Below the pieces are notes generated by a model. That model worked only from the letters and a program-made list of their open reading frames with translations, ran no database searches and was not told the DNA's origin. Shown here in pieces: positions 1 through 64,000 of a stretch of DNA of 64,000 nucleotides. The stretch lies in IMG/VR virus record IMGVR_UViG_3300046170_000323; one strand, 5' to 3'. The translations under genes were made by a program, and so were the position numbers. This stretch comes from a virus. Taxonomy: Duplodnaviria > Caudoviricetes. How positions within the stretch are numbered: position 1 is the first letter of the stretch; each line of letters starts with the position of its first letter.

Positions 1-1
1 T

Positions 2-331
2 GCATTCAAAAAGATGCCGATAGAAATACAGAAACAAAAACCTCGTTCTGTTCTCCAACACAACTACCACAAGTACGTTGTACGTTTTGAGGATCGGGAG
101 ACTCGTGACTTTATTAAGAAGTCTATAAAACAAACAGGGAAGTTCAAACCAGCTGTTCACTACGGTTGTCCACTTTCAGATCATGGTTGTTTTGATAACA
201 TAAACTTTCGTAAAGATGACACGCCTAATTCCAAGACCGCATCACAGACGATAATGTCACTACCTATCCATCCTTTCCTTACAGACGATGAGATAAATAC
301 CGTTATAGAATCAATCGTGGGAATATTATAG
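2..331 (+). CDS. DegT/DnrJ/EryC1/StrS sugar aminotransferase, C-terminal part (5' truncated by window)
   Basis: Frame open from base 2; C-terminal motifs YHKYVVR, VHY and SLPIHPFLTDDE typical of the family. Confidence 0.8.
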   Translation, partial: AFKKMPIEIQKQKPRSVLQHNYHKYVVRFEDRETRDFIKKSIKQTGKFKPAVHYGCPLSDHGCFDNINFRKDDTPNSKTASQTIMSLPIHPFLTDDEINTVIESIVGIL

Positions 332-332
332 T

Positions 333-1145
333 ATGAGTTCAGAAAAATTTGGATTTGGTATCGACTTCTATTTGACAAAGTCGTGTAACAAATCTTGCCA
401 TTATTGTACTGCATGGACAACTGAGATGAGAAATCTCGACATTGACATGGAGTTCGCAGCCCCTCTTCTTAAATGGTTATCACCATACAAAGCAAGAATC
501 AATCTTCTTGGTGGAGAACCTGCACTTACAAACAACTTAGATGAGATGATTGCAGAGATTAAGAAGTATCCTAATCTCACACCAGTTGTATTGTCTAACA
601 GTTTGATCAGAAAATTTTACCCTCACATCTTAGAAGATCCAGCCGTCCACTATGTGGAACATTTGGTATTGGACTTCTATGAAGATCGTATTGAGAAGTT
701 GGGCAACTATGACTTCCTAGAGGAAAACGAGAATAATAATTACAATGTGATTATCATGACTCCTAACTTCGAATTGTATAAGAAGAAACATGGACTCATG
801 GAACTGCATCACAAGAATACCTTGTTTAAAGAGTACAACTCAAGATCGCCCACTTACTCTACATTTGATCAGGAACCAGAGATGGTGAGACGTTTGTGTT
901 CTCTCTTCCCTCGTGTTCCAGTAATTGATTTTGAAATGAAAAAAATCCGACACTGTAGTAAAAAAGTTATCAACGGTTCTCGTCACTTTGATGTGACACA
1001 GGAGAACATTGATAAGATGATGAACTTCGATCTATTTGAATTCGAAAAGTACTGTCAAATGTGTACAGAGAAACTGTCTCGCAGAGGTAGTAAGATTGAA
1101 GCAGTGATGATGGATAAAATACTTGATAGGATGACAACAGCGTAA
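333..1145 (+). CDS. radical SAM protein
   Basis: CNKSCHYC (CxxxCxxC) and LLGGEP motifs. Confidence 0.8.
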   Translation: MSSEKFGFGIDFYLTKSCNKSCHYCTAWTTEMRNLDIDMEFAAPLLKWLSPYKARINLLGGEPALTNNLDEMIAEIKKYPNLTPVVLSNSLIRKFYPHILEDPAVHYVEHLVLDFYEDRIEKLGNYDFLEENENNNYNVIIMTPNFELYKKKHGLMELHHKNTLFKEYNSRSPTYSTFDQEPEMVRRLCSLFPRVPVIDFEMKKIRHCSKKVINGSRHFDVTQENIDKMMNFDLFEFEKYCQMCTEKLSRRGSKIEAVMMDKILDRMTTA

Positions 1146-2745
1146 TGGCACAGATCTTTGCCCAACCCCTAAACTTACATGATCATAACACATTCGACGG
1201 AAAGACACACATACAGTACGAGAGATACCCTGTATCATATCGTCGTAAACACTGTCACTGGCGGATAAAATATAACGAGAAGAATCCAGAACATCTCAGA
1301 ATGTTGGATCAACAAATTCCTTTTCAAAACATGTATAATGAATTGTTTGATCAAAACGCTGACTCTGAAACTATCCTCGCAATGAACCACACACTGAATG
1401 GTCTGAAACTGTACGGTGCGGATAGGTTCATTGAGAAGTTCGATGAATTTGGTAAAGATACCATTGGGTTCAATCCAAAAAACTTGTGGGACTATCAGGC
1501 ACAGGGTAATGTGTATTACACTGATCACCACCTCGCCCATGCAGCGCACACGTTCTTGTCTTCTGGTTACGAAGAGTCAGATATTTTTATCATCGATGGC
1601 GGTGGTAATATGTTCCGTTCTATCTTCGTTGACTCTAAAAAACAAGAAGTCGTTGATCTAAGTGATCATCTACCACTGGGTTGGTTGTGGAATGTCATGA
1701 CAAAAATTGGAGACTTTGGTGTACTTCAAGAAGGTAAACTTATGGGCCTCTGTAGGGTTACGGTAAGTTCGACATTCGTTGGTATGAGATATTCCATCTT
1801 ATGTTTGAAGAGTTCTGGAATCAGGCAGGTAAGTATTGGCCAGATCATCCATACTTCGAATCCTTCATGAAGAATGATAGTTGGAAAGTTGACATGGCTC
1901 ATACTCTACAACAGTTTACCTTAGATAAGATTGAAGAGATTGTATTACCATTGAAGACATCTAACAACCTATGTGTTGCAGGGGGTGTTGCATACAACGG
2001 TTATATGAACGAGATGTTAACCAAACACTGGGATAACGTTTATGTACCTTGTGCGCCTGGCGATGAGGGACAATCTATTGGTCTGTACATGCACGCTAAC
2101 TATGTTCTCAATGGAGAGGTAGACATCCCACCAATTTATATGGGGGATGAGTACGAAGTCGATCCACAGATCTTTGAAGGTTTGTCTGCAGAAGAGATGG
2201 ACTTTGATGACATCTGTTTAGTCGTTGCAAAAGAGATTGCGAATGGTGCAACAGTTGGTTGGCATCAAGGACGTGCGGAGAGTGGTAATCGTGCACTGGG
2301 TAATCGTAGTATTCTTGCAGATCCACGTGATGCTAGAATCAAAGACATTATCAATGGACGTATCAAGATGCGTGAAGACTTCCGTCCGTTTGCACCTAGT
2401 GTTCTGGTTGAACATTATCAAGACTATTTCGATACAAACCAACCAAGTCCATTCATGTCACGTATCATGCCTGTCAAGGAAGATAAGAAAGAGGTAATCC
2501 CTGGCGTCACTCACGTCGATGGAACCGCTCGTATCCAGACTGTTGATAAAGAGACTAATGAGAGATACTACAAAGTTATCGATGCATTCTATAAAGAGAC
2601 AGGTGTTCCTATGCTTGTTAACACCAGTTTCAATTGTCAAGAACCTGTGGTGGAGACACCGAAGAATGCAGTGGATACATTCAAGAGAACAGGACTTGAT
2701 ATTCTTGTGGTAGGGAATTGGCTAGTTAGAAAATGGAAAAAATAA
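1145..2745 (+). CDS. carbamoyltransferase (NodU/CmcH family), split by probable sequence indel near 1750-1757
   Basis: HHLAHAA, IDGGG and EGKLMGL in ORF 1145-1870; AGGVAYNG, GDEGQSIG, GRAESGNRALGNRSILADPR, FRPFAPSV and NTSFN in ORF 1801-2745; GYG resumes after a frame change. Confidence 0.85.
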
Positions 2746-3452: not shown

Positions 3453-3985
3453 GTAATTTAAAAGAACTTACATGGGAACATCATGAGAAGGCTGAGACAT
3501 CTCAGTTCGCAACAACACTGATGAGTGGTGATATTACACCAAAAGAGTATCAGGAGTATTTGTTCAATCAGATGGTTTGTTATGGTGCACTTGAAGGTGC
3601 AGTAGATCTACCAGAAGAATACAAACGTGTGTTTCGTGCAAACGCAATCTTTGAAGACATGCATGAACTGATGAAAGAATTCAATCTTCAACCGATTGAA
3701 ACTGCACTAGAAACAACTGTAGAATACGTGAACTATATTGAGAGCATTAAGAATGATAACCATCGTCTTCTTGCACACTTGTATGTACGTCATTTTGGTG
3801 ACTTGCATGGTGGTCAGATGATCTCAAAGAAAGTGCCAGGCAGTGGTAAGTATTATCAGTTCGAAGATAGATATGAACTAATCAAAGGGATGCGTACATT
3901 ACTTGATGATTCGATGGCAGACGAAGCAAGAATTTGTTTTGATTTTGCATTTCGATCTTTCGAGGAAATGAGCACAGATGAGTGA
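3449..3985 (+). CDS. heme oxygenase (HemO/Ho1-like)
   Basis: LKELTWEHHEKAE proximal His helix; LAHLYVRHFGDLHGGQMI distal helix. Confidence 0.9.
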   Translation: MSNLKELTWEHHEKAETSQFATTLMSGDITPKEYQEYLFNQMVCYGALEGAVDLPEEYKRVFRANAIFEDMHELMKEFNLQPIETALETTVEYVNYIESIKNDNHRLLAHLYVRHFGDLHGGQMISKKVPGSGKYYQFEDRYELIKGMRTLLDDSMADEARICFDFAFRSFEEMSTDE

Positions 3986-4658
3986 GCACGCTGATAAGTT
4001 AAAAGGATTCGCATTTTTTCTCGAAACACAATTCGATAAATACCTCAACCAATGGGATAATAAAAAACACTTCCAACACCTTCATGGGTGGCAAGATGAT
4101 TTTTGGAATAGTGATCTCGTTGAAAAATGTCATCTTAAAACGATTGACTTGTTAGAAGAACGTAAACTATGGTTACTACATCTTAATATATTTCCACGGC
4201 CAGGCTGGGACATCCCTATCCTTGGTTGTGATATTGTTGCAGGCCCTAATAAGATTAGTGGTGCGTTCTTTGATTTTTCTCCAGTTGTCCATGACGATCA
4301 CGAAATGTGTAAACACTTCAATGATCAGACACAAAAGTTTACTTGGAAGAAACCACGTGAACTGCCTCCTTGGGCAAAGGAGATCTTCAGTGACCACATG
4401 ATGGCAATCGGAAACGTGCGTGGTGAGGAAACAGATAACTTCCTTCTTGCCATTTCCCAATTAATATGTTATTATCTAAAGAACATGGAAGATAAAGCAG
4501 TGCAGGTAGATTTCTCTACACGAGAGATCCTCAACAAGTATTGTATTAATCAGAAGAAGAATGATCAGTTGCACAACAGTATACGTGCAATGGGTATCAG
4601 TGACGAAGCAAAAGACTACTATGTAAACAACGTATTATTTGAAGAGATCAATGACTAA
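3978..4658 (+). CDS. pcyX: ferredoxin-dependent bilin reductase, PcyX/PcyA-like
   Basis: LHLNIFP, PILGCDIV, FFDFSPV and RELPPWAKEIFS motifs; overlaps heme oxygenase; PcyX versus PcyA not resolved without phylogeny. Confidence 0.75.
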   Translation: MSEHADKLKGFAFFLETQFDKYLNQWDNKKHFQHLHGWQDDFWNSDLVEKCHLKTIDLLEERKLWLLHLNIFPRPGWDIPILGCDIVAGPNKISGAFFDFSPVVHDDHEMCKHFNDQTQKFTWKKPRELPPWAKEIFSDHMMAIGNVRGEETDNFLLAISQLICYYLKNMEDKAVQVDFSTREILNKYCINQKKNDQLHNSIRAMGISDEAKDYYVNNVLFEEIND

Positions 4659-5415
4659 AACTTTACTTACCCTTGGGGATAGTTGGACAGACAGTGAATA
4701 TCCTGGCTATGCACCCAACGGTGTAGTAACTTGGGCTGAACAAGTAATAGAAAAGATGGAAGGTTGGAAACTCGTCAACCTTGCACAAGAAGCATCTGGT
4801 AATGAAAAAATTATGAAGACTGGTGTAGACTATCTTCGTGACAATACACCAGATGCAATCTGCGTGTTGTGGTCAGAACAACATAGAGAGGATTTCTACA
4901 ATCGTCATAACTTGATGCCTATCTCTGCAATGTATAATAAATCGTGTGATCCGAAGACTACAGAGATATACAACGTTGAGGCGGTTTATGATTCTCTTGT
5001 GAATACAAACTTACACTTAAATGTACCTAAAGAATATTTTAGAAACCTGTACATTCTTCAAAGTTTTGCAGACATGAAGGGTATACCGATATATCACGGA
5101 CAGGGTACTAAGTTGTGGTCGAAATGGATCTACAATAAGGTGGGAATGAAAGTTGGAAACCGATTGTGGCGAGAATGGTTAACTGCATTCATAGAGTGTG
5201 AGTACTTTGAGATGTTTGATAAAGATCACAAAAACTTTGTGGGATGGCCTATGCAACATGGTATTACCAGTAAGGGGTTTGCTTTCACCGAAAGGTTTGA
5301 TGGTAGACACAGAATATCTGGTGATGATCCACACCCTAATACAAAGGGACATGAAATGATTGCTTATGAGTTCTTGAAGAAACTAAAGGCAAAGGAAACA
5401 ATCGTCAATGCCTAA
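4639..5415 (+). CDS. SGNH/GDSL hydrolase-family protein
   Basis: GDSWT block I, GN block II, DPHPNTKGH block V. Confidence 0.8.
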   Translation: MKRSMTKTLLTLGDSWTDSEYPGYAPNGVVTWAEQVIEKMEGWKLVNLAQEASGNEKIMKTGVDYLRDNTPDAICVLWSEQHREDFYNRHNLMPISAMYNKSCDPKTTEIYNVEAVYDSLVNTNLHLNVPKEYFRNLYILQSFADMKGIPIYHGQGTKLWSKWIYNKVGMKVGNRLWREWLTAFIECEYFEMFDKDHKNFVGWPMQHGITSKGFAFTERFDGRHRISGDDPHPNTKGHEMIAYEFLKKLKAKETIVNA

Positions 5416-6257: not shown

Positions 6258-6512
6258 ATGAATACAACTGTGGTGTCACTAACACCAGAAAAAATACATC
6301 ACGCTATTGCAGAACAAATCGCAAGAGGCGTACCATACATTGACGCATTGATTACTTACGCAGAAAAGAACAATCTGGAAATAGAATCTGTGGCTGATGT
6401 GATTAAAAAGTCCTCTATTCTAAAGGAAAAGATTCGCAGAGAGGCAACTGAACTTAGAATGGTAAAGAAACCCGAAGAAGAACAGCTTGATGTAACAACA
6501 TTATGTGATTGA
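6258..6512 (+). CDS. 33: gp33-like late promoter transcription co-activator
   Basis: YIDALITYAEKNNLEIESVADVI...LKEKIRREA pattern; lies just upstream of gp59-gp32. Confidence 0.75.
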   Translation: MNTTVVSLTPEKIHHAIAEQIARGVPYIDALITYAEKNNLEIESVADVIKKSSILKEKIRREATELRMVKKPEEEQLDVTTLCD

Positions 6513-7215
6513 TATGGCCAACTTGGAACCTCTAGGACTTCGATCATCAGAAGATCCCATTGAAAATATTAAAACAGTACTTGACAACTATGACCATATT
6601 GGTATATGGTTGAGTGGTGGTGCAGACTCAGCGTTGGGTTTGTATTTACTTCAGATGTATAATACGAATACAACTATCTTGCCTTTGCATGGTATGGACA
6701 TTCGTAGATGGAGAGATGGTCAAACAAAACTTTCTGAGGGTGCAACTGAAGACATCATAAAGGTGATAAGGAAAAGACAACCAGAAAAGTCTCATCTACT
6801 TCACGATATGTATTGTTTTGATTATGAAAAAGAGGACTGGGAGACTAAGGCAAAATATCACCAACCAGTTGAAGATGGACTACGTGCAGATGGGACAATA
6901 CAAGTCGCACTTAATTTTGTGACAAAGAACCCTCCAATCCAACTCCATAATCAACAAGAACCACGTAGAGATAATAAGAAAGCAAAGGTTCGGAGACCTT
7001 TCGCTCGACGTGATAAAAAATGGGTTGCAAGTTTGTATGAAGAATATGACTTGATGAAAGACCTATTCCCACTAACTGTATCTTGCATTTCGCCATGGGA
7101 TGAACCATGCAAACAATGTTTCTGGTGCAAGGAAAAGAAGTGGGCTTTTGGAATGTATGATGGTGGAATTAAAAATGATCGAATTACCAAAATATATAAA
7201 CGACGAGTCGTATAA
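6505..7215 (+). CDS. QueC-like PP-loop (adenine nucleotide alpha-hydrolase) protein
   Basis: LSGGADS PP-loop; C-terminal SC...PCKQCFWC Cys cluster. Confidence 0.65.
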   Translation: MIDMANLEPLGLRSSEDPIENIKTVLDNYDHIGIWLSGGADSALGLYLLQMYNTNTTILPLHGMDIRRWRDGQTKLSEGATEDIIKVIRKRQPEKSHLLHDMYCFDYEKEDWETKAKYHQPVEDGLRADGTIQVALNFVTKNPPIQLHNQQEPRRDNKKAKVRRPFARRDKKWVASLYEEYDLMKDLFPLTVSCISPWDEPCKQCFWCKEKKWAFGMYDGGIKNDRITKIYKRRVV

Positions 7216-7771
7216 GGTATACGTAACATACCTTGCAATGAAGAGACATTTCACTTCACCAAAGTACGATTATCATAAATATAATGGTAGAGTAAGTGCA
7301 TCGTTTGACTCTTTTAAGAAGCGAACGGATGCATATTATTTTGCAAAACTGTCAAAGAATGATGACTATGAGAACGTCCTTCTCGCACACATGATCAAGA
7401 ATCCAAACACTTGGATACGAGACGTTGTCGAGGATGACTACATTTACTTTGACTGGAAGAAAAAGATAGATGCGCTTGGCTATACCTTCAAGTCTGAACT
7501 CAAAAATTTAGACGACGACTGGAAGACAAATTTCATATCGCATGGTGGACAACACCCTTTGATTTTGACGTTGCGTTTGCAACAGAAGATCTCCTTGGAG
7601 ACGTTTACCATATTGACCCATGTCGCAAATATTTTTGATTATTGGGAGCAGAATTTGCTTGACAAATACGTGGCTTCTGATATAATACAACAATCAAGAA
7701 AGTACTTTCCCTTCTTGATGTTGGATGTGAAACGATTCAAGACTATGGTCAAGGATCACTTTGACATATAA
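7175..7771 (+). CDS. 59: gp59 helicase loader
   Basis: YLAMKRHFTSPKYDYHKYNG and ISLETF motifs; immediately upstream of gp32; start moved to ATG 7175. Confidence 0.85.
   Translation: MIELPKYINDESYKVYVTYLAMKRHFTSPKYDYHKYNGRVSASFDSFKKRTDAYYFAKLSKNDDYENVLLAHMIKNPNTWIRDVVEDDYIYFDWKKKIDALGYTFKSELKNLDDDWKTNFISHGGQHPLILTLRLQQKISLETFTILTHVANIFDYWEQNLLDKYVASDIIQQSRKYFPFLMLDVKRFKTMVKDHFDI
7659..7686 (+). promoter_or_regulatory. sigma70-type promoter upstream of gp32
   Basis: TTGACA-16 nt-TATAAT. Confidence 0.55.
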
Positions 7772-7800
7772 CACAACGCAAATACAACGTAATACAACGC
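7770..7800 (+). repeat. three imperfect AAYACAACG repeats in the gp32 leader
   Basis: aacacaacgc aaatacaacgt aatacaacgc just before AAGGAG RBS. Confidence 0.7.
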
Positions 7801-7817
7801 TATAAAGGAGAATAATT

Positions 7818-8762
7818 ATGGCATCAGACTTTAACGCACTCAAGAAGAACCGTTCTAAGTCACTAGACAAGTTGAATGCTCAACTTGACAAAATCACCAC
7901 AAAATCATATGCAGATCCCAATGAAGGGAAGTTTTGGAAACCAACTCGTGACAAAGCGGGTAATGGGTTTGCAATCATTCGTTTCTTGGCACCAACCCAA
8001 GGGGAAGAAGTGCCGTTTGTACGTATCTGGGATCATGGTTTCCAAGGGCCAACAGGTCAGTGGTATATCGAAAACTCTCTGACTACACTGAATCAAGACG
8101 ATCCAGTATCAGAGTATAACTCAAAACTGTGGAACTCTGGTGTGGAGTCCGACAAGGAACTCGCACGTAAACAGAAACGTCGACTGAAGTATGTGTCGAA
8201 CATCTTGGTGATCAAGGATTCAGCGAATCCTGAGAACGAAGGTCAAGTCTTCATGTACCAGTACGGTAAGAAGATCTTTGATAAACTCAACGATCTGATG
8301 AACCCTCAGTTTGAGGACGAGACTCCAGTAAACCCATTCGACTTCTGGGAAGGTGCAAACTTCCGTCTGAAGATTCGTAAGTTCGAAGGTTACCCAAACT
8401 ATGACAAGTCAGAGTTTGATGCGCCATCACCACTATTCGAAGATGATGCAGAAATCGAATCAGTATGGCAAAAGCAACACAAGTTGCAAGACCTTCTGGA
8501 TCCGTCAAACTTCAAATCATATTCTGAGTTGAAGGAAAAGTTGTACCGTGTCCTCGCATTGGATGACGCTGGCCCAACTGCACCTAGTGCATATGATGAT
8601 GAAGACGATGGACTGAATCTTGGGGCATCAATGCCTTCATCCGCTCCTACTCCATCACCTACGATGGCGGACGAGATCCCTTTTGATACCGCTCCTAGTT
8701 CAATGAATGTTGATGACGATGATGATGATCTTTCAATCTTCAAGGAACTCGCTAAAGGATAA
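7818..8762 (+). CDS. 32: gp32 single-stranded DNA-binding protein
   Basis: FWKPTRDKAGNGFAIIRFL, GQWYIENSLTTL, NPFDFWEGANF; acidic tail. Confidence 0.97.
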   Translation: MASDFNALKKNRSKSLDKLNAQLDKITTKSYADPNEGKFWKPTRDKAGNGFAIIRFLAPTQGEEVPFVRIWDHGFQGPTGQWYIENSLTTLNQDDPVSEYNSKLWNSGVESDKELARKQKRRLKYVSNILVIKDSANPENEGQVFMYQYGKKIFDKLNDLMNPQFEDETPVNPFDFWEGANFRLKIRKFEGYPNYDKSEFDAPSPLFEDDAEIESVWQKQHKLQDLLDPSNFKSYSELKEKLYRVLALDDAGPTAPSAYDDEDDGLNLGASMPSSAPTPSPTMADEIPFDTAPSSMNVDDDDDDLSIFKELAKG

Positions 8763-9085: not shown

Positions 9086-10150
9086 GTGAGTCTATTAGAT
9101 AAAATGCTCAAATCAGGAGCAGTGAAGACTTCTTCAATTCTTTCTAAGTCAAAGTTTTTCGAGGCGAAGGATCCCATTCAAACGGAACTTCCCATCGTTA
9201 ACATTGCATTTAGTGGATCATTGAAGGGGGGATTAATCCCCGGCCTAACTGTAGTTGCAGGGCAGTCAAAGTCATTTAAGACTTTGCTGTCTCTGTACTG
9301 CATGAAGGCATATCTAGATAAGTACGAAGAAGGCGTGGCATTATTGTACGACTCTGAGTATGGTATTACACCAGAATATCTAGAAAGTTACAACATCGAC
9401 ACCAACCGTGTTATACATATTCCTGTAGAAGATGTTGAACAACTAAAGTTCGACATCACTAAGAGGTTGGACGAAGTAGACAAAGGTGATCGTGTATTCG
9501 TCATGATTGACTCTGTTGGTAATCTTGCATCTAAGAAAGAAGTCGAAGACGCTAAGAACGAGAAGGCAGTTGCCGACATGTCTCGTGCGAAAGCGTTGAA
9601 GTCTCTCTTCCGCATTATTACACCTAAGTTGACTGCAAAAGACATCCCTTGTCTTGCAATCAACCACGTCTATCAGGAAATCGGAATGTTTCCTAAGGCG
9701 ATTGTATCTGGTGGAACTGGTATCTATTACTCCGCAAACCAAATCTTTATCATCTCTAAATCGCAAGAGAAGGATGGTACAGATCTCGCAGGGTTTAAGT
9801 TTACTATCAACATCGAAAAGTCACGCTTCGTGAAAGAGAAGTCCAAACTTCCATTCACAGTTCTCTATGAGTCAGGTATTCAGAAGTGGTCATCATTATT
9901 TGACCTCGCACTGGACGCAGGGTTCATTGCCAAATCTACACAGGGATGGTATAATCTCGTAGATATGGATAGCGGTGAAGTTATCGAACCACGTCGACGT
10001 TTGAAAGATATCGAACAAGATGACGCATTCTTTGAGAAATTGGTTGCCAACGATGACTTTAACGTGTATATTGAGCGCAAGTTTAAATTAAACATGGCAC
10101 AGGCTGAAGATGATAGAAACAACGATACTGACGAACCTGATTCTGAATGA
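9086..10150 (+). CDS. uvsX: UvsX RecA-like recombinase
   Basis: AGQSKSFKT Walker A, YDSEYG, IDSVGNL, SGGTG motifs. Confidence 0.95.
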   Translation: MSLLDKMLKSGAVKTSSILSKSKFFEAKDPIQTELPIVNIAFSGSLKGGLIPGLTVVAGQSKSFKTLLSLYCMKAYLDKYEEGVALLYDSEYGITPEYLESYNIDTNRVIHIPVEDVEQLKFDITKRLDEVDKGDRVFVMIDSVGNLASKKEVEDAKNEKAVADMSRAKALKSLFRIITPKLTAKDIPCLAINHVYQEIGMFPKAIVSGGTGIYYSANQIFIISKSQEKDGTDLAGFKFTINIEKSRFVKEKSKLPFTVLYESGIQKWSSLFDLALDAGFIAKSTQGWYNLVDMDSGEVIEPRRRLKDIEQDDAFFEKLVANDDFNVYIERKFKLNMAQAEDDRNNDTDEPDSE

Positions 10151-15962: not shown

Positions 15963-16724
15963 ATGTTTATATCACACAAATACAAATTTATTTTTCTTAG
16001 AGTTCCGAAGACTGCCTCAACTAGTCTTTCGGAATTCTTTGTTCGTAACATAGACGATCCAGATGCATTTTACACAGACGTAGATGATGCAAATCTTGAT
16101 GGGACTGTGCCTCATGATAAACTCAAAGAGATTAGAGGAGTACACGAACACTACAAACCCTTCTCACACCTACATTTAAATCTAAAAGAACTCGTTGATC
16201 ATGGTATAGTAACACCAGAACAAATCAACGAGTATTATTGTTTTGCGGTTCTCAGAGATCCTATTGAAAGACAAAAGAGTTTTTACTACTTCTTTAAGAA
16301 GTGGGAAGATGAGAGATCTGGTAAGAAACCCTATGATATAGACGATTACAAATTCATGGCACCTAATGGGTGGTTTGATGGTGACAAGGCAACAGGTGAA
16401 GATAACTCTAAACTACTTCAGTCCGATTTCCTCATGTATGATGGTAAACAACAAGGTGAGTATTGGTTATATGAAAATATAATGGATCACCTTATAGAGT
16501 TTATGAATAAACTTGATTTGGAAATAAAACACCCATTGAAAAAACACAAATCAAATTTTAGAGTAGATAAAATTGATGAGTCCAAGTCATTTAATTTTGA
16601 TCACCAAGCAATCACCTCAATGAGACATTATTATAAAAATGACTTCAACTTATATTCATTATTAAAGAGACAATATCATGCAGACACAACGAGCTTACAT
16701 ACTTACAATAGACAAACCAATTAG
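15963..16724 (+). CDS. sulfotransferase family 2 protein
   Basis: FIFLRVPKTASTS 5'-PSB loop and VLRDPIERQKS 3'-PB motif. Confidence 0.85.
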   Translation: MFISHKYKFIFLRVPKTASTSLSEFFVRNIDDPDAFYTDVDDANLDGTVPHDKLKEIRGVHEHYKPFSHLHLNLKELVDHGIVTPEQINEYYCFAVLRDPIERQKSFYYFFKKWEDERSGKKPYDIDDYKFMAPNGWFDGDKATGEDNSKLLQSDFLMYDGKQQGEYWLYENIMDHLIEFMNKLDLEIKHPLKKHKSNFRVDKIDESKSFNFDHQAITSMRHYYKNDFNLYSLLKRQYHADTTSLHTYNRQTN

Positions 16725-17404
16725 TCGTGAATACGCACAACATGCATCTGCTTCTTGTGATGAGATAGGTCTCAACTGGGAGTACTTCGAAGGTTGGTGT
16801 GATATCCCTGGCGTTCTTGCATGGGCAAGATCGGGGATTAATTTGCGTATAAACGAGGGGAGACCAATTAAACTTCCCCCTGCAGATCTGGATTACCCAC
16901 CAAATCCAAACTTACCTATGGGTGAGAAAGCAGAGTGTTGTACGGTTGGTCATGCTGCGATATGGAAAAAGATTGCAGAGGGTGAAGAGGATGTAGGTAT
17001 TGTGTTAGAACATGATGCAATTATGTTACATTCTGTGGACATTGAAATACCAGAGAATAATATGGTTGTTTTAGGATACAAACTAGACAAACCTAATAGG
17101 TATGATCATTTGACTGCAGGGCCCTGCAGTGAGACTTGTACCAATCAGAGGACATGAAGGTGCACATGCATATGCGATGACTAAGAAAACAGCGCAGATA
17201 TTGATTGATGAGATCGAAACAGGTGGTCGATTAGGGTGTGTAGATAATGCATATTTCATCTTAAATCAAAGACGCACAAAGGTTCCTCTATGTATCGCAG
17301 ACCCAACACCCGCTTTAGGTTGGTTAAGGGCATCTACTATTTGGCAGGAATCTGCACATGTTAACTACGAATTTCTTGATTCATTCAAACAGAATTATAA
17401 ATAA
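16678..17404 (+). CDS. glycosyltransferase family 25-like, split by probable indel at 17119-17124
   Basis: CCTVGHAAIW, VLEHDA and downstream GAHAYAMT motifs. Confidence 0.7.
17396..17403 (+). promoter_or_regulatory. T4 late promoter TATAAATA
   Basis: Exact consensus 33 nt upstream of ATG 17436. Confidence 0.8.
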
Positions 17405-17435: not shown

Positions 17436-20400
17436 ATGTACAACCTCAAAGAAACTGACAAAAAAGAAAAGAAGTCCAAGAAGAAGGATGTGATGAAATT
17501 CAAAGAGTTTGATCCTTCTCAGTACATCGAAACAGAACCGACACTCAAAGAAGCAAAGAGTGATACGGTTGTGTTTTCTTTTGGTCGTATGAATCCAGTG
17601 ACTATCGGTCACGAGAAACTTGTCAACAAGGTTAAGTCTGTTGCTAAATCCATGTCAGCCGATTCACGTGTCTATCTATCGCACACGCAGAATAATCAAA
17701 AAGATCCCCTCAGTTATAAAGACAAATACCGATTTGCGAGGAAAGCATTCGGGCCAATCATTATACAATCAAAAGCGAGACAAGTATTCCAAATCGCAGC
17801 CGAACTCGAAAAGGCGGGATACAAGAACATCGTCATGGTTGTTGGATCTGATCGTGTAGAAGAGTTCAAAAGAATTCTAGACAAGTACAACGGTAAGGAC
17901 TACGACTTCGCATCTATCAAAGTTGTTTCTGCTGGCGCACGTGATCCAGACGCAGATGGTGTTGAAGGAATGTCAGGTACAAAACTAAGAGGTATTGCCC
18001 AAAAGGGACAGTTTGACGACTATACAGATGAGAAGGGTAAGAAACAATTCGGTTTCAAAAGTGCTGCTGCATCTAAGTTGTCAGACAAAGACAAGATGGC
18101 AATGATGAAACTTGTTCAGAAGAACCTCGCAGAGGCGGAACTTCAAGAAGCGTTGACCAGACAACAACGTATGCAACGTGCACGTACATTCCGTAGAATC
18201 AAACATAAGATTAAAAAGGGACGTGAACGGGCGTCAAGAAAACGTGCAGGTATCGACAAGTTGCAGAAACGTGCCGCAAAGGGTGCAAGAAATCTCTTGA
18301 AAAAGAAAATGACTAAGGGACAAGACTACAAACAAATGTCTTATGGTCAAAGACAACAGGTCGATAATCGTCTGAAGAAAGTATCTCCTGCCCGTCTAAA
18401 AGCATTATCTAAACGTCTCTTACCTTCAGTGAAGAAGAAAGAGATGGAACGTATTAAGAACCGTAATAACAAATCTGAGGGTGTTGCACAGGACAGACAA
18501 GTCAAAGACATGCCGGGCACACAGCCAAAAAAGTACTATAGCGGGCTTGATAAAAAGGATAAGGAATCACGTGCAAGACAGTTTGCACGACAGGCGAAAA
18601 TGTCTGATGATGATCCACGTGCTTACAAACCCGCTCCTGGCGATAAGGAAGCGAAGACCAAACCGTCAAAACATACTAAGAAGTTTCAACAGATGTATGG
18701 TGAAGCAGATGCAGTTGCGGCTGCAAGAGAACGCATCAAACGTGAGAAACAGTCTGATAAAGATAAACACGATGCAATGATGGATCGTGCAAGAACTCAG
18801 GATACCAGATCTAAGAATCAAAAGACTGAGGCAATCTCCCCTGCACAACAGGCTGCGATTGCTATTGCAAAGAAAGCAAAAGGTCAGAAACCTAAGAATG
18901 AAGATGACGATCCATGTTGGGATACTCACAAGCAAGTTGGTATGAAGAAAAAGGGCGGCAAGATGGTTCCAGATTGTGTCCCTAAAAACGAATCAATTGC
19001 AGAAGAAGTTTCTCAGAAACAGATCAATGACCTAGAGAAATTTGCAGATCGTATTCTTGCGAAGTTCAAGATTGACGTGGAGTTTACTAAACACTTCGTT
19101 GATAGAATGAACGACAAGAGAAACACACCAGAAATTAAAGTTGCAGAACTTCAAAAGTTATTTAAAAAGATACAGAAGAATAAGGGCAAAGATGTTAAAG
19201 ACAATGAGGGTATTGAAGCAGTTCTTAAAGATCTGTCATCTGACTTAAACCTTCCAGTTGTAATTAAAACAAAAGGTGACGAGATCGAACTCGTCAATAA
19301 GACCATTATGAGAAAAAAAGATTTTAAAACACCTTCTAAGGTAATCAAGTACGAACAGTTTTCAAACATGGACGAAGCATCACGGGCGGACATGAGAGTA
19401 CGTAAAAGACCACACATGATGTTGAAGGCAGGGAATGCTGGAGTCAAGTTCGATGGTCGTTTCAAAATGTACAAGAAGAAACAGGTACTGAAAGACGAAG
19501 AGAAACCGTTGGAAGAATCATTTGAATCTATGGAGAACATGATCTTCGATCTAATGGAATCAACTGAAGCCGTGATTGCGGAAGATTCAGGCGAAGCACT
19601 TAAGAAGAAAGCAGAAAAATCTGGAATGCCTCTTGGTATTCTAAAGAAGGTTTTTGATCGTGGTGTTGCCGCATGGAGAACAGGACATAGGCCTGGCACT
19701 ACTGCAACTCAGTGGGGTCTTGCACGTGTCAACTCATTTGTAACTAAGTCTAAAGGTACTTGGGGTAAAGCAGACTCTGATCTTGCCGCAAAGGTTAGAA
19801 AAGAATCTGTTGATGAGGAAAAAGAATTAGAAAAAATCTTAACTACGGATGGTCGTATGAAATCGTTTAAAGAGAAACTCAGAAAACTGGGTTATAAAAA
19901 AATCGACGAAGGAAAGTCTTCTTCTGGATACGAACTGTACCACAATGATTTCTCCTCTGCAATGAAACATGCATACAAACATGCGAAAGACAAACTGAAA
20001 GTGGATATCGATCCTAATGAGATCGATGACAAAGTGGCAACTGGGCCTCGTAAACCTTCTAAGGGTAAAACGAATTCATATCGTTTGACAGATAAGTCTG
20101 GTAAAAAGGCAGTACAGATCCAAGTGTACAACATGGACGGTAAAAAATACGAACTGAACATGTACAAGGAAGACTTGGACGAAGCACCTCGACGTAAACG
20201 CCCACCTAAAATGACTGGTGACTCTATTGCAATTCAACGTGCAAAAGACGCAGAACTTAACAAAGCTCTTGGTCGTACAAAGACTGGACGTAAGAAACCA
20301 GTACGCAAAATGACATCTACCCAACGTTCACTTGCGTCATTACGTGGGGAAGAAGTAGAAAACATTGATGATCAGTTTGACGCTATCATCAAAGAGGCAG

Positions 20401-22093: not shown

Positions 22094-22482
22094 AACGTTT
22101 TAAACAATATACTGTAGAAAATTTTGGTTTGTACGAGGGGGTAACAGTTCCCCTCGAATCTCCTATGATAGAAATAGATCCTATCGTATGTGAAGAGAAA
22201 GAACCAGAACTCAACTCTCCAAAAAGAAATAGTGGGGATGGCAAAAAGTATGTTGTTTATGTAAAGGATCCGAAGACAAGTAATGTCAGAAAGATAACAT
22301 TTGGGGATGAAAAGGGTGGATTGACATCTAAGATTGGTGACAGAGATGCAGCACGTGCATTTGCAAGTCGTCATAGTTGTGATACTAAGACTGATAAGAT
22401 GACGCCTGGATATTGGGCGTGTCGTCTACCGAAATATGCAAAACAGTTAGGATTAAGTGGTGGCGGAGATTACTTTTGGTAG
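22090..22482 (+). CDS. putative head-internal protein (DUF6321-like)
   Basis: N-terminus MKRFKQYTVE; KKYVVYVKDPKT...FASRHSC...GYWAC module. Confidence 0.5.
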   Translation: MKRFKQYTVENFGLYEGVTVPLESPMIEIDPIVCEEKEPELNSPKRNSGDGKKYVVYVKDPKTSNVRKITFGDEKGGLTSKIGDRDAARAFASRHSCDTKTDKMTPGYWACRLPKYAKQLGLSGGGDYFW

Positions 22483-28496: not shown

Positions 28497-28535
28497 CTCT
28501 CTAACAGTTAAACACACTTGGATACTTTTTATAAT

Positions 28536-29550
28536 ATGGTTGACTTTACAGATCTTCAGTACGCTCAGATGTTGTCTGGGCGCTTACAGAACTTTCGCAT
28601 ACGCAACACAAATCCCTACAAGATAAACTTTAGATGTCCTATCTGCGGTGACTCTCAGAAGTCACGCAGTAAGTCACGTGGTTGGTTGTTAGAGAAGGAG
28701 AACAAGTTCTTCTACTACTGTCACAACTGTGGCGCCAGTCACAACTTCTCCAACTTCCTTAAGACCGTAGACCACCTCATGTACAATGATTGGGTGGCTG
28801 AGAAGTTTATCAAAAAGGATAAAAAAGAACCTTTTTCTTTCGAAGATACTACCGAAAAGAAACTGACTGTTCTAAAGAAAAATCCCCTACGTTCTATAAA
28901 AAAAGTCTCTCAGTTGCATCACAATCACGCAATCAAAAGATATATAAGTAAGAGACACATTCCGGCACGTCACCATTATCGTCTGTATTATACCAAGGCG
29001 TTCAAGAAATGGATTAACGGAATTATACCTAATAAATTCGACAACGTAGAGAAGGACGATCCTCGCCTAATTATCCCATTCATTGATCAAAACGGTAAAG
29101 TATTTGGGGTATCGGCACGTGGATTTGATCCTAATGGTCTTCGTTATTTGACTATAATGTTCGAAGATCGTCCAAAGGTTTTCGGTCTCGATACTGTTGA
29201 CTTTAGTAAAGAGTATCATGTTGTTGAAGGAGCTTATTGACAGTTTATTCCTCTCGAATGCGGTTGCGATGGCAGGCGCTGAAGGAAACGTCGACGGTTT
29301 CGATAATATTGAGAATGCTGTATTTGTCTTTGATGCAGAACCACGCAACAAAGAGATACACAAACGAATGGAGAAGGTGATCAACAAAGGATACAGAATT
29401 TGTATCTGGCCTGAACAGATTTCGACAGTCGGTAAAGACATAAATGAGATGTATCTAAATGGCATGTCAAATGTCGAAGATATAATACGTGCTAATACGT
29501 TCAAAGGTTTAGAAGCAACCTTTAGATTACAAAAGTGGAGAAGAACATGA
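28536..29550 (+). CDS. 61: gp61 DNA primase, split by probable extra T near 29233
   Basis: FRCPICGDS...YYCHNCG zinc finger; VEG / IDSLFL / FDAEPRN TOPRIM motifs across the break. Confidence 0.92.
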
Positions 29551-30242
29551 AAGTTAGATTAATATCTTGCAGTCAACCTATCAAGGACAGCATCATTGGA
29601 TTAGAGGATGTACAGGACTTGATTGCATACTGTGCCAGAGTATCTAACCCCGATAACCAACTGAACTCTAAGACTTCAGACAAATTACTCAACTACCTTG
29701 CAAAACATAAACATTGGTCACCGTTTGAAATGGTGAACGCATGTATCGAAATTGAAACAACTCGTGATATTGCAAGACAACTACTACGACATCGTTCTAT
29801 GTGTTTCCAAGAATTTTCTCAGAGATATGCTGATCCTGTGAAAGAATTGGAATTCGTAAAACGTGAATGTCGTTTACAAGATCCAAAGAACCGCCAGAAC
29901 TCTATCGAAATAGAAGGTGATCCCGCCTTGGTTGAAAATCAGAAGAACCAAGAATTGATTGCTGAGTGGAATCGTAAACAGACTGGTGTAATTGAATTGG
30001 TGAAGAAGAACTACCAATGGGCAGTTGAACAGGGTATTGCAAAAGAACAAGCACGTGCCCTACTGCCAGAAGGTTTGACTGTATCAAGACTATATGCAAA
30101 CGCAACAATCCGTTCGTGGATTCATTACGTTGACTTGCGTTCTGCCAATGGTACACAAAAAGAACATATGGAGCTTGCGAAGGCAGTAGGTAAGGCAATT
30201 ACTGAAATATTCCCCCTCGCAGACAATTACATTAACAACTAG
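29547..30242 (+). CDS. thyX: flavin-dependent thymidylate synthase ThyX
   Basis: HWSPFE and RQLLRHRSMCFQEFSQRY signature. Confidence 0.95.
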   Translation: MKVRLISCSQPIKDSIIGLEDVQDLIAYCARVSNPDNQLNSKTSDKLLNYLAKHKHWSPFEMVNACIEIETTRDIARQLLRHRSMCFQEFSQRYADPVKELEFVKRECRLQDPKNRQNSIEIEGDPALVENQKNQELIAEWNRKQTGVIELVKKNYQWAVEQGIAKEQARALLPEGLTVSRLYANATIRSWIHYVDLRSANGTQKEHMELAKAVGKAITEIFPLADNYINN

Positions 30243-30258
30243 AACATTAGGATCAACT

Positions 30259-55495: not shown

Positions 55496-55524
55496 TTGAC
55501 ATTTGTTTTTAAAACGTTTATACT
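55496..55524 (+). promoter_or_regulatory. early sigma70-type promoter
   Basis: TTGACA-17 nt-TATACT with A-tract upstream. Confidence 0.8.
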
Positions 55525-55568
55525 GTGTGTATAAATTGAGTTTAACCTCTCGTAAAGGAGAAATACAA

Positions 55569-56525
55569 ATGGCACATGAACTAGAAATCGTTGGTGGTGA
55601 AGCACAAATGGCCTACCGTGAGAGCAAGGGTCTTCCTTGGCATGGACTAGGTACACCAGTACATGATTTTATGTCACCACAGATGATGATGGAAGCAGCT
55701 GGTCTCGACTGGGACGTTGAGAAAGTTGATACCTTTATTCGTTACAAAGGTGACAATGTAAAAACAGGACAACAAGCACTTGTTCGTTCTACAGATGGTA
55801 AGATCCTCACACAAGTAGGTGAAGGATGGAATCCAGTACAGAACGCAGAAGCGTTCGAATTCTTCACAGAGTTTGTATCTAACGGTGACATGATCATGGA
55901 CACTGCAGGTTCACTTAAAGGCGGTCAGATCGTCTGGGCACTTGCAGATGTACGTGATGGTTTTGAACTGTTTGGTGGTGACGAAGTGAAAGGTTACCTT
56001 CTGTTCTCAAACCCACACCAGTACGGTAAAGCAATCGACATCAAGTTCGTAATGGAACGTGTTGTCTGCAATAACACACTGACTGTGGCACTGAACGAAA
56101 AGGGTATGCCTGGCGTTCGTATCAATCACCGTTCGCAGTTCAATGCAGATATGGTGAAACAGACTCTTGGTATCGGACACAATCGTGTAGAACGTTTCAA
56201 AGAAGCTGCAGAGTTTCTTGGTTCAAAGAACTACAACAAGTTCGATCTTCAGAAGTTCCTTGGTGATGTATTCGGTACGTCTGCAAAGGAAGGTAAAGAT
56301 CTTTCTCGTACTGCAGAACGTGCACTTGAGATTGTCGAGACACAGCCTGGAAATGAGTTCAAGCCTGGCTCATGGTGGAATGCATACAATGCAGTGACTT
56401 ACATGACTGACCACGAACTTGGTCGTTCTGCAGACACTCGTATGACTTCTGCATGGTTTGGTGTTAACGCAAAACGTAAAGTTGATGCCTTAAACACTGC
56501 ATTAGAGTACGCAGAATCTGCATAA
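55569..56525 (+). CDS. DUF932-family protein
   Basis: MAHE..PWHGLG, AGLDWDV, VQN.EAF, TAGSLKGG, RVVCNNTL, W.AYNAVT motifs. Confidence 0.9.
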   Translation: MAHELEIVGGEAQMAYRESKGLPWHGLGTPVHDFMSPQMMMEAAGLDWDVEKVDTFIRYKGDNVKTGQQALVRSTDGKILTQVGEGWNPVQNAEAFEFFTEFVSNGDMIMDTAGSLKGGQIVWALADVRDGFELFGGDEVKGYLLFSNPHQYGKAIDIKFVMERVVCNNTLTVALNEKGMPGVRINHRSQFNADMVKQTLGIGHNRVERFKEAAEFLGSKNYNKFDLQKFLGDVFGTSAKEGKDLSRTAERALEIVETQPGNEFKPGSWWNAYNAVTYMTDHELGRSADTRMTSAWFGVNAKRKVDALNTALEYAESA

Positions 56526-59190: not shown

Positions 59191-59225
59191 AATAGTGTAA
59201 GTTGAGAAAAGAAAGAGAGTTTGAT

Positions 59226-59564: not shown

Positions 59565-59575
59565 GGAGAACTGAA

Positions 59576-61069: not shown

Positions 61070-61079
61070 TCTAATATCA

Positions 61080-61992: not shown

Positions 61993-62724
61993 TACACTAC
62001 ACCCTTCGTTGCGGCGACATAGTTATCCATGCCGTGATCTTTTGCACCGTCGAGTATTCCTGATTTCCATCCTCTCCACTTATCTTTGATCATCTGCCAC
62101 GTAGTTAACTTACGGATATTACCATAAAAGTTTATATACTGTAACTTACCGTGGTGTTTGTATCCCATAATAAACAATGGAACTTTTGTTACAATGTCGT
62201 TATTGTTTACATATCTCATATGTGGAGTTGAGATGTGTTTAACGAATTTGCGTGTACCAACTCTGGGCGAACCGAAAGTTGTTAACTGTTCTACCTTTAC
62301 TGCTTCCTCTAAACGAGAAGTCGCAATCGTTGCCATTGCTGCACCAAGTGAGTGACCAGTAATATAGATCTTTTTACCTTGGTGTCCTTTAGTCTTACCG
62401 TTATCTCCGCCCCAATGTTTCATAATTGGATTCCAGAGTTTATCAGTCTCACCTCTAAAACCTGAGTGGACTAAACCGTGAGTCATTGCGCCACGTGGAA
62501 TCGCATTAAGATCTGCAAGAACATCTGAAAGTTCTGAGGGTTCTGTTCCTCTAAATGCGAGTACATATTCGTTTTTATTCCAAATTGCGTGGCATTGTGC
62601 ACCACCCTTTTCGAAAAACTTGTGTCCAGTATATCCAAGTTCTTTCATACGTGGTTTTGCTTCTTTACCGTCAAGGTACGCTAAAAGCGGCCAACTTGGC
62701 CATTTTGTGACAAACTTCTGACAT
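61992..62724 (-). CDS. class 3 lipase (alpha/beta hydrolase), probable extra base near 62685
   Basis: AFRGTE, VHSGF, ITGHSLGAAMAT, TFGSPRVG, DIVTKVP and DH motifs; true start probably ATG 62724. Confidence 0.88.
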
Positions 62725-62732
62725 TTACTCTC

Positions 62733-63173
62733 CTAGTCCGTTTCGAACTCTATGCCTCCGCCATTGTTTAATTTGCGTAGTGCATCTAATTCTGCTTGTA
62801 ACTTTAAAACTTCTAATCTTTTTTTCCTCAACTCTAATTCATATAATGAATTGCAGTTGATTCTCTGTTTTGGTTTGTCGAGAGGTATTGTTATCCTTGC
62901 ATACACACCCACGTCTCTCGAACTCTCAAATCCATCCGCACCGTTGTTGCCAAATGGACTCTCATAGTTATCTATAATACCAGTCACGCCAAATTCTAAA
63001 TTAGTAGAACCACCTATTGAGTTCTTACAATCCAAACCATCAGGAGTTCTGATACTGTCTTGTCCATAGGAACCACCTGAGTTGGGAATCGCAAGGTTGA
63101 TACCACTTGTTTCTGATTGTGCAGTTGATGAAATAAACATAATCATTAATGCACTCATAATAAACCGTTTCAT
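62733..63173 (-). CDS. secreted hypothetical protein
   Basis: Signal-peptide-like N-terminus, two Cys, C-terminal coiled coil. Confidence 0.65.
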   Translation of the reverse strand: MKRFIMSALMIMFISSTAQSETSGINLAIPNSGGSYGQDSIRTPDGLDCKNSIGGSTNLEFGVTGIIDNYESPFGNNGADGFESSRDVGVYARITIPLDKPKQRINCNSLYELELRKKRLEVLKLQAELDALRKLNNGGGIEFETD

Positions 63174-63566
63174 TTAATATAGCCTTCTCTCTTTGACCTT
63201 GGAACAAATCCTAGACTTAATTGCAGTTCGTTTCAGATTTTCTTTCCTCAGTTTAGACTTCGAACAAATGTACACAACTCTTTTTACATCTCCTCGTTGT
63301 ATATAAATTTCTATTGTCGCACTTGTTAAATATGGTATCTTATATACCTTATATTTAGATACAAATGGGATTGGTTGCCAATCTCCATCAAAAACACCCA
63401 CCTCATAATATTCCACATCACTACGTTTATTAAACATCGTCATGGTGGTAGCATAAAGCCCGTCCATGAAAGATGGTCTAAACTTAGGATATGTTGGCAC
63501 CATTTCGTGTGCGTTGACACTGGTTGTAAAAACCAGTGCCAATAAAATGTATAATGCTTTCTTCAT
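63174..63566 (-). CDS. secreted protein, possibly pilus-chaperone-like Ig fold
   Basis: Signal peptide ending VNA; beta-rich; start moved to MKKALY. Confidence 0.55.
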   Translation of the reverse strand: MKKALYILLALVFTTSVNAHEMVPTYPKFRPSFMDGLYATTMTMFNKRSDVEYYEVGVFDGDWQPIPFVSKYKVYKIPYLTSATIEIYIQRGDVKRVVYICSKSKLRKENLKRTAIKSRICSKVKERRLY

Positions 63567-63664
63567 AATCTCTTTCTTAAGTATCATCACGGACATCCAC
63601 CTAATCTTCTACATGTTGGACTAGGGTTCACTACTGGTGAAGGGGTTCCGCTAGATCCTCCCTT

Positions 63665-64000
63665 TCATTGAGCAATGCACTCAGCAGTTACAAGCGCAGT
63701 ATAGTTACCGCCTGGAAATGCTTTAGATCCACCCATAGTCGCAACAGATGAAGTCTCAAACCATGTAGATCCAGTTGCAGTCAGATCATAACGATCTGTC
63801 ATTCCAAGTTCTACCTTGTTTGTTTCGTACGATCCCATACCTGTGGCATCAGACATTGCATCTACTTCAGTATCACCAGTCCAAGTTACTACGTCTGGCA
63901 GATTTGGAGATGAACTGAATTCAGTTGGTGGCGTAATTTCTACGTAATATGCATCAGCGAGTGATACGTCCACACGAATACGTGCATCTTCACCACCATC
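63665..64000 (-). CDS. fimbrial/pilin-like beta protein, C-terminal part (truncated by window)
   Basis: Frame open to window end; ends FPGGNYTALVTAEC (G-x-Y-x-x-x-V-T strand). Confidence 0.45.
   Translation of the reverse strand, partial: DGGEDARIRVDVSLADAYYVEITPPTEFSSSPNLPDVVTWTGDTEVDAMSDATGMGSYETNKVELGMTDRYDLTATGSTWFETSSVATMGGSKAFPGGNYTALVTAECIAQ

Follow-up and report, generated by a model that had tools for sequence, protein, structure and literature searches.

Conditional restriction-site avoidance in a marine T4-like phage lineage suggests a protective DNA modification at GGC/GCC

The 64,000 bp stretch of viral DNA described here (IMG/VR record IMGVR_UViG_3300046170_000323; hereafter the window) has a G+C content of 40%, belongs to a large marine T4-like myovirus, and carries a signature along its entire length (1..64000): CGCG and GGWCC are absent, and the words CCWGG, CCGG, ACGGG and GGAGG are kept only where a flanking G:C pair completes GGC, with GCC on the opposite strand (the first two always, ACGGG and GGAGG with the few exceptions enumerated below). 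The signature is directly apparent in the word statistics, in the codon anatomy of the surviving sites, in the equivalence of the two strands, and in its conservation both within the phage lineage and in the Methylophilales phage Melnitz. We consider the best reading, at somewhat better than even probability, to be restriction-site avoidance combined with a putative protective modification at GGC/GCC, which would be installed by an enzyme for which no gene of a known DNA-modifying family was found in the lineage.

The flank pattern is genuine and far exceeds chance. All 34 CCWGG sites in the window are either GCCWGG or CCWGGC, with both flanks present in 21 of them, the ten CCAGG sites are all GCCAGGC, and every one of the nine CCGG sites (9240..9243, and those starting at 18513, 27265, 28962, 30887, 34844, 43436, 46863 and 50826) has exactly one flank, as GCCGGD or its complement. 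There are no occurrences of GGACC, GGTCC or CGCG, and 34 of GGSCC. These counts and positions were first reported from an inspection of the letters alone (the sequence-only reading), and our recount agrees with every figure. As a null model we used 1000 synonymous shuffles in which the protein sequence and every dinucleotide are kept, third codon positions being swapped only between codons with the same first two bases, amino acid and following base. Bare sites are expected in quantity and none is observed: HCCWGGD is expected 43.1 times (minimum 29 over the 1000 shuffles), HCCGGD 15.7 times (minimum 6), CGCG 45.4 times (minimum 28), and GGWCC 32.3 times (minimum 21). GCCWGGC occurs 21 times with 1.2 expected (z 18.7), and flanked CCGG lies at the neutral level, with 9 observed and 9.0 expected, compared to 0 and ∼16 for its bare form. 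The flank bias thus does not derive from coding, and the earlier contention that it is not due to chance is sustained. Several 6-bp palindromes are also missing, with 8–17 expected for each over 136.8 kbp; this larger set combines the window with the upstream part of a second IMG/VR record (G001; 117,770 bp), which matches window positions 1-44,937 at 98.9% identity and adds 72.8 kbp upstream. Two supporting arguments of the sequence-only reading fared less well. CCWWGG words are not wholly unconstrained as it had supposed, with CCATGG depleted to 6 occurrences compared to 21.5 expected, and the common GGCCC and GGGCC words that it took as a sign of protection call for no such argument, because Gly-Pro must be encoded as GGNCC.

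The coding context of the CCWGG sites is strikingly uniform. The 33 genic sites all begin at codon position 1, as in-frame CCW-GGN Pro-Gly pairs, and the 34th (16807), which falls outside the gene calls and was scored as intergenic, would also read Pro-Gly in frame 1 of a longer open reading frame (16678-17157). Pro-Gly is always encoded by CCNGG and cannot escape both CCWGG and CCGG, which is why such sites exist at all; to this extent Pro-Gly coding, which had been set aside as an insufficient explanation, does account for the sites, although it leaves the choice of GGC unexplained. Gly following Pro is encoded by GGC in 33 of 35 pairs compared to 12% of Gly codons genome-wide (P 6e-28), and never by GGT (0/35), although this makes up 55% of Gly codons genome-wide (P 5e-13). 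The codon preceding Pro-Gly ends in G at 24 of the 34 sites, or at 24 of 26 when only amino acids with a G-ending codon are counted; of the other ten sites, eight are preceded by Ile, Tyr, Asn, Asp, Phe or His, none of which can be encoded with a final G. What is under selection, therefore, is the palindrome-like GCCWGGC, and this is a feature of the DNA duplex rather than of the mRNA.

Individual sites illustrate this rule. The GCCAGGC at 3835..3841 (plus strand) consists of the last base of a G-ending codon, Pro CCA and Gly GGC, and is one of the 21 doubly flanked sites; in the others CCWGG starts at 2056, 4200, 10899, 12063, 14475, 19692, 20628, 21408, 26326, 26398, 26791, 31333, 36004, 38066, 48117, 56109, 56364, 59735, 59750 and 60779. 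The CCTGGC at 2500..2505 (plus strand) has a single flank and is preceded by Ile ATC, for which there is no G-ending synonym, and it is one of eight forced plus-strand sites lacking the 5′ G (2500, 4702, 15574, 16807, 20592, 36280, 47575 and 48078). Two further plus-strand sites without it, at 18636 (following GCT) and 26068 (following GTC), could have taken a G. Only two Pro-Gly sites use GGA instead of GGC, GCCTGGA at 22404..22410 (plus strand) and a second at 56345-56351, and neither has lost the 5′ G. A minus-strand gene conforms as well: the coding strand of the site at 63710..63716 reads TTT CCA GGC (Phe-Pro-Gly).

Rescue by a G:C flank extends well beyond CCWGG. When all 4-6-mers are scanned for biased 3′ neighbors, those at the top of the ranking are words ending in GG and followed by C. 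Within the window a 3′ C follows ACGGG in 12 of 13 cases, GGAGG in 9 of 12, and HCCGG in 9 of 9, and over the 136.8 kbp the corresponding figures are 23/24, 19/23 and 100%. The complementary forms are likewise preceded by G on the coding strand (G|CCCGT 6/6, G|CCGAG 3/4, and G|CCTCC 2/3), and because the rescue is symmetric on the two strands the effect acts on double-stranded DNA. Among all strongly depleted 5-mers pooled, survivors ending in GGC number 59 compared to 56 expected (observed/expected 1.05), whereas the ratio for those ending in GGA, GGG or GGT is 0.04 and that for the CGC ending is 0/27; no terminal trinucleotide other than GGC gives rescue in this unbiased scan. G/C-rich palindromes behave similarly, in that those containing GGC/GCC are not depleted (172 compared to 173.7 expected; observed/expected 0.99) and those lacking it have a ratio of 0.66, with many zeros. 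The central proposal of the sequence-only reading, that only sites overlapped by GGC/GCC escape purging, therefore gains agreement from the unbiased scan, the palindromes and the strand symmetry. Apparent rescue of CTCGG and TTCAGG in the window was discarded, as neither replicates in the upstream 72 kbp, and rescue of TCAGG is strong only in Melnitz.

These data also bear on the idea that a translational preference for Pro-Gly as CCW-GGC, added to ordinary CCWGG avoidance, accounts for the pattern. Every CCWGG is indeed a Pro-Gly pair, with the wobble base of Gly as its 3′ flank. However, the 5′ flank is the wobble base of a different, preceding codon, and in the free cases enumerated above it is nearly always G; rescue extends to the template strand and to non-Gly contexts such as G|CCCGT and G|CCGG; and no CCW-GGC preference is found in the phages S-SM1, S-TIM5 or HTVC008M. 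A codon-pair explanation is already contradicted by the strand symmetry, and we consider it extremely improbable.

The context that rescues can be narrowed further. Neither CGCGGC nor GGCGCG shows rescue and a 3′ C partly rescues CAGC, such that the critical base pair appears to be the middle one of GGC/GCC, with GCC and not any GC as the context; a GC lying within CGCG, TGC or AGCT gives no rescue. GpC was accordingly rejected as the motif: CGCG is absent, the GC-containing words CTGCAG, ACCTGC and AGCT are depleted in Melnitz, and CAGC requires the added C. RGCY was rejected because the base following CCWGGC is G in 13, A in 11, T in 8 and C in 0 cases, and no single degenerate motif fits all of the depleted words, ACAGG for example not being depleted. 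Words containing AGC or GCT are low in nearly all contexts (CAGC 176/253, AGCA 247/356, AGCT 68/146, and GCTA 85/137, observed/expected), and the window uses the Ser codon AGC 34 times compared to 285 for AGT.

The signature is a property of the lineage. The window is present in contigs of sequencing runs from 17 seawater studies, and proteins identical to those it encodes occur on contigs from metagenomes, the longest of 211,489 bp; the whole genome of its near-identical relatives is ∼211 kbp, and coverage of the rest of the genome was assembled from G001 and metagenome contigs reached by walking. In this remaining part, including the 72.8 kbp upstream and the structural module, CCWGG is flanked in 26/26, 20/20, 21/21, 4/4 and 5/5 cases and CCGG in 5/5, 3/3, 2/2 and 3/3, and both CGCG and GGWCC number zero. 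More distant IMG/VR contigs are mixed, some holding the CCWGG rule despite the presence of CGCG or GGWCC, and others not following the rule. A near-identity search of a phage collection gave no match, and a distant search returned Melnitz and cyanophages only. The Melnitz isolate has all 68 of its CCWGG sites flanked (67 of them in the Pro-Gly frame) and all 15 of its CCGG sites, with one CGCG, no GGWCC, and 3′ C rescue of ACGGG in 15/16, GGAGG in 13/16, and TCAGG in 25/31 cases; its observed/expected ratios for 4-mers correlate with those of the window (r 0.81), compared to 0.16 for phage P-HM1. HTVC008M, S-SM1 and S-TIM5 do not have the signature. P-HM1 follows a different and partial flank rule in which CCWGGY is retained and CCWGGR is lost, and no C5 methylase was found in it. 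Its genome (L102-L111) avoids RGCY words on both strands (AGCT 310/889, AGCC 56/226, and GGCC 32/61, observed/expected), lacks GCGC and CCGG altogether, and has CCWGG almost exclusively as Pro-Gly, with GGC used 72 times, GGT 46 times, and GGA three times. GATC occurs 369 times in the 64-kb window and only 23 times in the 141.5 kbp of Melnitz, where ∼190 are expected, a contrast that is likely to be host-specific.

Two phages that share this type of footprint encode C5-cytosine enzymes. Melnitz gene 5 (Melnitz positions 4010-5227; L119:111-1328), annotated as HhaI-like, has SpCmoX (8YF3; E 6e-76) as its best solved relative, and is a 38% identical homologue of CmoX with an SPPC motif. It represents a Melnitz-type subfamily of CmoX-related C5 enzymes found on at least 178 IMG/VR contigs (75–100% identity, with an SPPC-P motif), and in 80 IMG/VR loci bearing such an enzyme (L120-L199; likewise 75–100% identical) CCWGG is flanked in 145 of 149 cases. 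At the position of the carboxylate-binding R350 of SpCmoX (N304 of HhaI) the Melnitz-type enzymes have Leu in 19 of 19 sampled homologues, and no CmoA or CmoY partner was found in Melnitz; its chemistry may therefore differ from that of CmoX. SpCmoX of Synechococcus phage S-B43 is a cytosine C5-carboxymethyltransferase (Yang et al., Nat Commun 2025, PMC12783734), which together with CmoA and CmoY yields 5gcxmC, via 5cxmC, at a GC motif and blocks HhaI (PMC12783734). In S-B43, 5gcxmC at GC was demonstrated by liquid chromatography-mass spectrometry and nanopore sequencing, with ∼75% of virion GC sites modified (PMC12783734). We find that CCGG is the most depleted word in the S-B43 genome (L211-L221), with 8 occurrences compared to ∼121 expected, and that all eight are GCCGG or CCGGC. 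This kind of footprint is therefore also borne by a phage in which modification of the C following G is proven. ACCGGT, GTCGAC and GACGTC are also absent or nearly so from S-B43.

We therefore propose the following model, in which we infer the existence of the modification in the window phage, the base that carries it, and the source of the installing enzyme. The genome would have been purged of nuclease target words (CGCG, GGWCC, CCWGG, CCGG, CCCGT/ACGGG, CCTCC/GGAGG, and several 6-bp palindromes), and those that cannot be removed, or that arise by chance, would survive only with a G or C flank giving GGC opposite GCC. The most economical candidate cause is a covalent post-replicative modification at the central G:C pair of this trinucleotide; the modified base could be the first cytosine of GCC, which follows the G, or the guanine with which it pairs, and the modification would block cleavage of any site including this middle pair. 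Selection would then operate at two levels, with sites removed wherever synonymous codons permit, and the forced Pro-Gly CCNGG sites fixed as ..G CCW GGC, covered on one or preferably both strands.

Several observations weigh against this model. First, GCCGGC, in which double protection is predicted, is absent, although only 1.6 are expected. Secondly, AGCT is depleted approximately twofold (68/146) despite containing GC. Thirdly, there are no flanked CCWGG sites in codon phases 1 and 2, outside the Pro-Gly frame, where 7.6 are expected, and any protection at CCWGG would therefore be incomplete, with the flank cutting the cost of a CCWGG site but not abolishing it. Fourthly, no gene for the modification was recovered. 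The CmoX, CmoA and CmoY searches covered the window, G001, contig L112 and the structural-module contigs, or ∼209 of 211.5 kbp, the ∼2.7 kbp outside the gene searches lying inside two giant virion genes. Over this extent neither tblastn with CmoX nor a hidden Markov model built from SpCmoX and Melnitz-type sequences gave a match (best E 0.38 for the latter), and tblastn with SpCmoA and SpCmoY gave none in any of the lineage sequences at thresholds of E 1e-2 or 1e-3. The 117.8-kb G001, which includes the DNA polymerase region, has no match to PF00145, PF01555, PF01702 or PF00303, the last meaning that a ThyA-family dCMP/dUMP hydroxymethylase of the T-even type is not present there, and the precomputed Pfam tables of the remaining-genome contigs list virion and glycan genes but no DNA methylase or tRNA-guanine transglycosylase (TGT). 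A regular-expression search for methylase signature motifs had a glycosyltransferase as its sole match. For the GCC-type C5 enzyme that the sequence-only reading had offered as its second choice the outcome is divided: the Melnitz enzyme and the S-B43 footprint provide it with better precedent, whereas the gene family is absent from the lineage.

The failure to find a modifying gene in the lineage is in keeping with an alternative in which there is no modification and the nucleases driving avoidance are themselves flank-sensitive, binding HCC-type sites and failing to cut after a G. Flanked CCGG, CTCGG and GGAGG lie near their neutral expectations, as words that are not targets would, and P-HM1, with its own flank rule and no C5 methylase, indicates that flank-dependent avoidance can exist with other rules. 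However, at least four unrelated words (CCWGG, CCGG, CCCGT and CCTCC) would all need the same H/D flank, with TCAGG and GCGGG added in Melnitz; flanked CCWGG should be neutral as to frame, and is missing outside Pro-Gly; and the second flank is still selected (24/26) even though one would suffice. Moreover, Melnitz, which infects an OM43 Methylophilales strain, obeys the same rule, and S-B43, with its proven GC modification, bears the same footprint. We regard flank-sensitive nucleases as unlikely, though one of the two main rivals together with a host-supplied modification, and modification at GGC/GCC as the better account.

If the DNA is modified, the agent could be a host enzyme, such as an orphan or restriction-modification-linked methylase with a motif containing GCC/GGC, to which the phage sequence has merely adapted. 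The lack of a phage gene fits with this, as does the type II DNA methylase that the Melnitz host is also reported to encode (PMC9004378). Against it, the signature spans phage lineages whose DNA polymerases share only ∼40% identity, HTVC008M infects SAR11 and does not have the signature, and a search of 185,579 bacterial and archaeal species genomes, able to find close relatives only, turned up none for the Melnitz enzyme. We consider installation by the host to be quite unlikely.

A different chemistry, and the one favored in the sequence-only reading, is a 7-deazaguanine (dPreQ0 or a derivative) placed at GGC by DpdA. In the siphophage CAjan, DpdA-dependent dPreQ0 occupies GA and GGC motifs, and the DNA resists HaeIII (Kot et al., NAR 2020, PMC7544227). 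Two window proteins are suggestive of preQ0 genes: a 236-residue protein between gp33 and gp59 (6505-7215), whose last 60 residues match QueC-like families (E 2e-4 in Pfam, and 1e-9 in PHROGs, PHROG 1550), and a radical-SAM protein (333-1145) with weak QueE-like scores. However, the QueC-like match is confined to those C-terminal residues, and the radical-SAM protein scores equally with many unrelated families, all below the cut-offs. There is no TGT/DpdA (PF01702) candidate in G001 even at E 0.1 and none in the Pfam tables of the remaining contigs, and FolE and QueD did not turn up in the general Pfam scans and tables, neither family having been the target of a search of its own. Furthermore, the footprint-sharing phages Melnitz and S-B43 carry C5-cytosine enzymes, and S-B43 lacks a TGT. 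The preference for dPreQ0 is thus not upheld, and we assign a deazaguanine only a very slight probability.

Other candidate genes were considered. The island between the sliding clamp and the DNA polymerase encodes a UDP-sugar dehydrogenase, a cytidylyltransferase, and glycosyltransferase-like, DUF262-HNH nuclease, DruA/DUF4338 and MazG-like proteins. The DruA/DUF4338 protein beside the DNA polymerase was rejected as the determinant because HTVC008M, which lacks the signature, has a 51% identical copy, and its 456-residue neighbor was rejected as the modifier, as it looks like a GmrSD-type DUF262-HNH nuclease. This GmrSD-like gene lies at G001 18985-20352 (L208:6985-8352), and we note that nucleases of the GmrSD type cut modified DNA, and that here one is borne by a phage suspected of modifying its own. 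Proteins common to Melnitz and absent from signature-negative phages are limited to a DUF932 protein, a cell-wall hydrolase, and small proteins of no known function. The DUF932 gene (55503-56525, plus strand) encodes a protein 50–54% identical to homologues in Melnitz and in the signature-positive contigs L010, L013, L023 and L024, and is absent from HTVC008M, S-SM1, S-TIM5, P-HM1 and S-B43, and its presence tracks the signature in the few genomes compared. Its predicted structure (predicted local distance difference test score 63) finds no counterpart in the PDB and, in AFDB, only DUF932/DUF945 clusters, and our literature search found no published function for the family; it is a candidate lead only.

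Taken together, the lack of any known DNA-modifying gene would imply either an enzyme of an unrecognized family or one supplied by the host. C5, N4 and N6 methylases, CmoX, DpdA and hydroxymethylases are all absent from an essentially complete genome, and on this basis we suggest, tentatively and with less confidence than for the modification model itself, that an abundant marine T4-like lineage modifies GGC/GCC using an enzyme family not yet recognized as DNA-modifying. If this is so, the search for a new DNA-modifying activity in a lineage with the full signature but no known enzyme is directly testable, and the Pro-Gly footprint G-CCW-GGC could serve as a sequence-only detector of hidden modifications in metagenomes. 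For uncultured seawater phages such a footprint would reveal which motif is modified (GGC/GCC), which base pair is probably involved, and which nucleases the phage encounters; it would also tie the CmoX DNA chemistry of late 2025 to a measurable evolutionary signature, and it extends to the cultured OM43 phage Melnitz, whose enzyme departs from CmoX at the residue that selects the cofactor.

The window assembly itself contains a further peculiarity. In comparison with five independent assemblies of its relatives, the window has 16 isolated one-base indels, and in every case the extra base is in the window (5726, 8851, 11267, 14002, 14131, 17119, 29234, 34914, 35160, 35594, 37023, 40982, 57594, 60973, 61214 and 62686), and 14 of these are in a run adjoining a GC dinucleotide, with 12 at AGC or GGC (RGC). 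The extra base after AGCT at 29234 (plus strand) splits a primase-like gene into 28518-29240 and 29197-29550, that at 34914 splits an aminotransferase gene, and a carbamoyltransferase gene (1145-2745) is probably also broken by an insertion. Contigs from four public runs lack the five insertions that were tested. Insertions beside one motif are a hint of native-DNA reads stuttering at a bulky modified base, and as a practical matter systematic one-base insertions at the motif would be expected in assemblies of such phages.

The window genes are transcribed from the plus strand up to ∼61.1 kbp and from the minus strand thereafter. They include those coding for gp33, gp59 and gp32 (within 6258-8762), UvsX, a gp41-type helicase, NrdA, NrdB, PhoH, RNase H, and ThyX (29535-30242), which is the sole thymidylate synthase type encoded, there being no ThyA; a heme oxygenase/bilin reductase pair and several sugar-modifying genes are also present. 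Small ATP-sulfurylase-like and APS-kinase-like proteins are encoded at G001 29451-30314 (L067:9451-10314) and at window positions 15963-16724, alongside sulfotransferases, UDP-glucose dehydrogenase, cytidylyltransferases, several glycosyltransferases, and phosphomannomutase. The phage thus appears to produce both an activated sulfate donor and a sulfated glycan, with the virion, the host envelope or DNA as the possible target. Beyond the end of the window, the structural module of the relatives (L226, L227 and L231) contains giant genes encoding 3280, 2025, 3763 and 1859 residues; a pair of these adjoin Peptidase_S74 domains, and all four comply with the CCWGG flank rule.

Several known systems resemble the present one in part. 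As in classical palindrome avoidance, there is strong or absolute loss of CGCG, GGWCC, CGATCG, GACGTC, GGTACC, GCATGC, CCATGG and CCGG; in contrast to it, the loss is conditional on a 1-bp flank that makes one particular trinucleotide, and it reaches into the choice of Pro-Gly codon pairs. Our literature search found no earlier description of avoidance conditional on a 1-bp flank. Chloroviruses have short-motif cytosine methylases, including M.CviPI (GC) and M.CviJI (RGCY), whose motifs of 2–4 bp are centered on GC, and the insertion artefacts of the window similarly cluster at RGC(Y); however, there is no PF00145 gene here, and since the base following CCWGGC is never C, RGCY is not the protective context. 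CAjan resembles the window phage in that GGC is a modified motif and restriction sites containing it are protected, including that of HaeIII, but the window lineage has no detected DpdA/TGT, no preQ0 pathway is apparent in it beyond the partial QueC-like match and the below-cut-off radical-SAM scores, and there is no sign of GA protection, GATC being abundant in the window although strongly avoided in Melnitz. The CmoA/CmoX/CmoY system of S-B43 differs in that none of the three genes is found in the window lineage, and in that its GC motif is broader than the GGC/GCC footprint, which does not protect CGCG, CTGCAG or AGCT. Nonetheless, S-B43 is also a marine T4-like phage (Kyanoviridae; ∼214 kbp), and its modification is post-replicative, directed by a short motif, placed on the cytosine following a G, and restriction-blocking, as that proposed here would be. 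We therefore take CmoX, and not dPreQ0, to be the closest precedent for the footprint.

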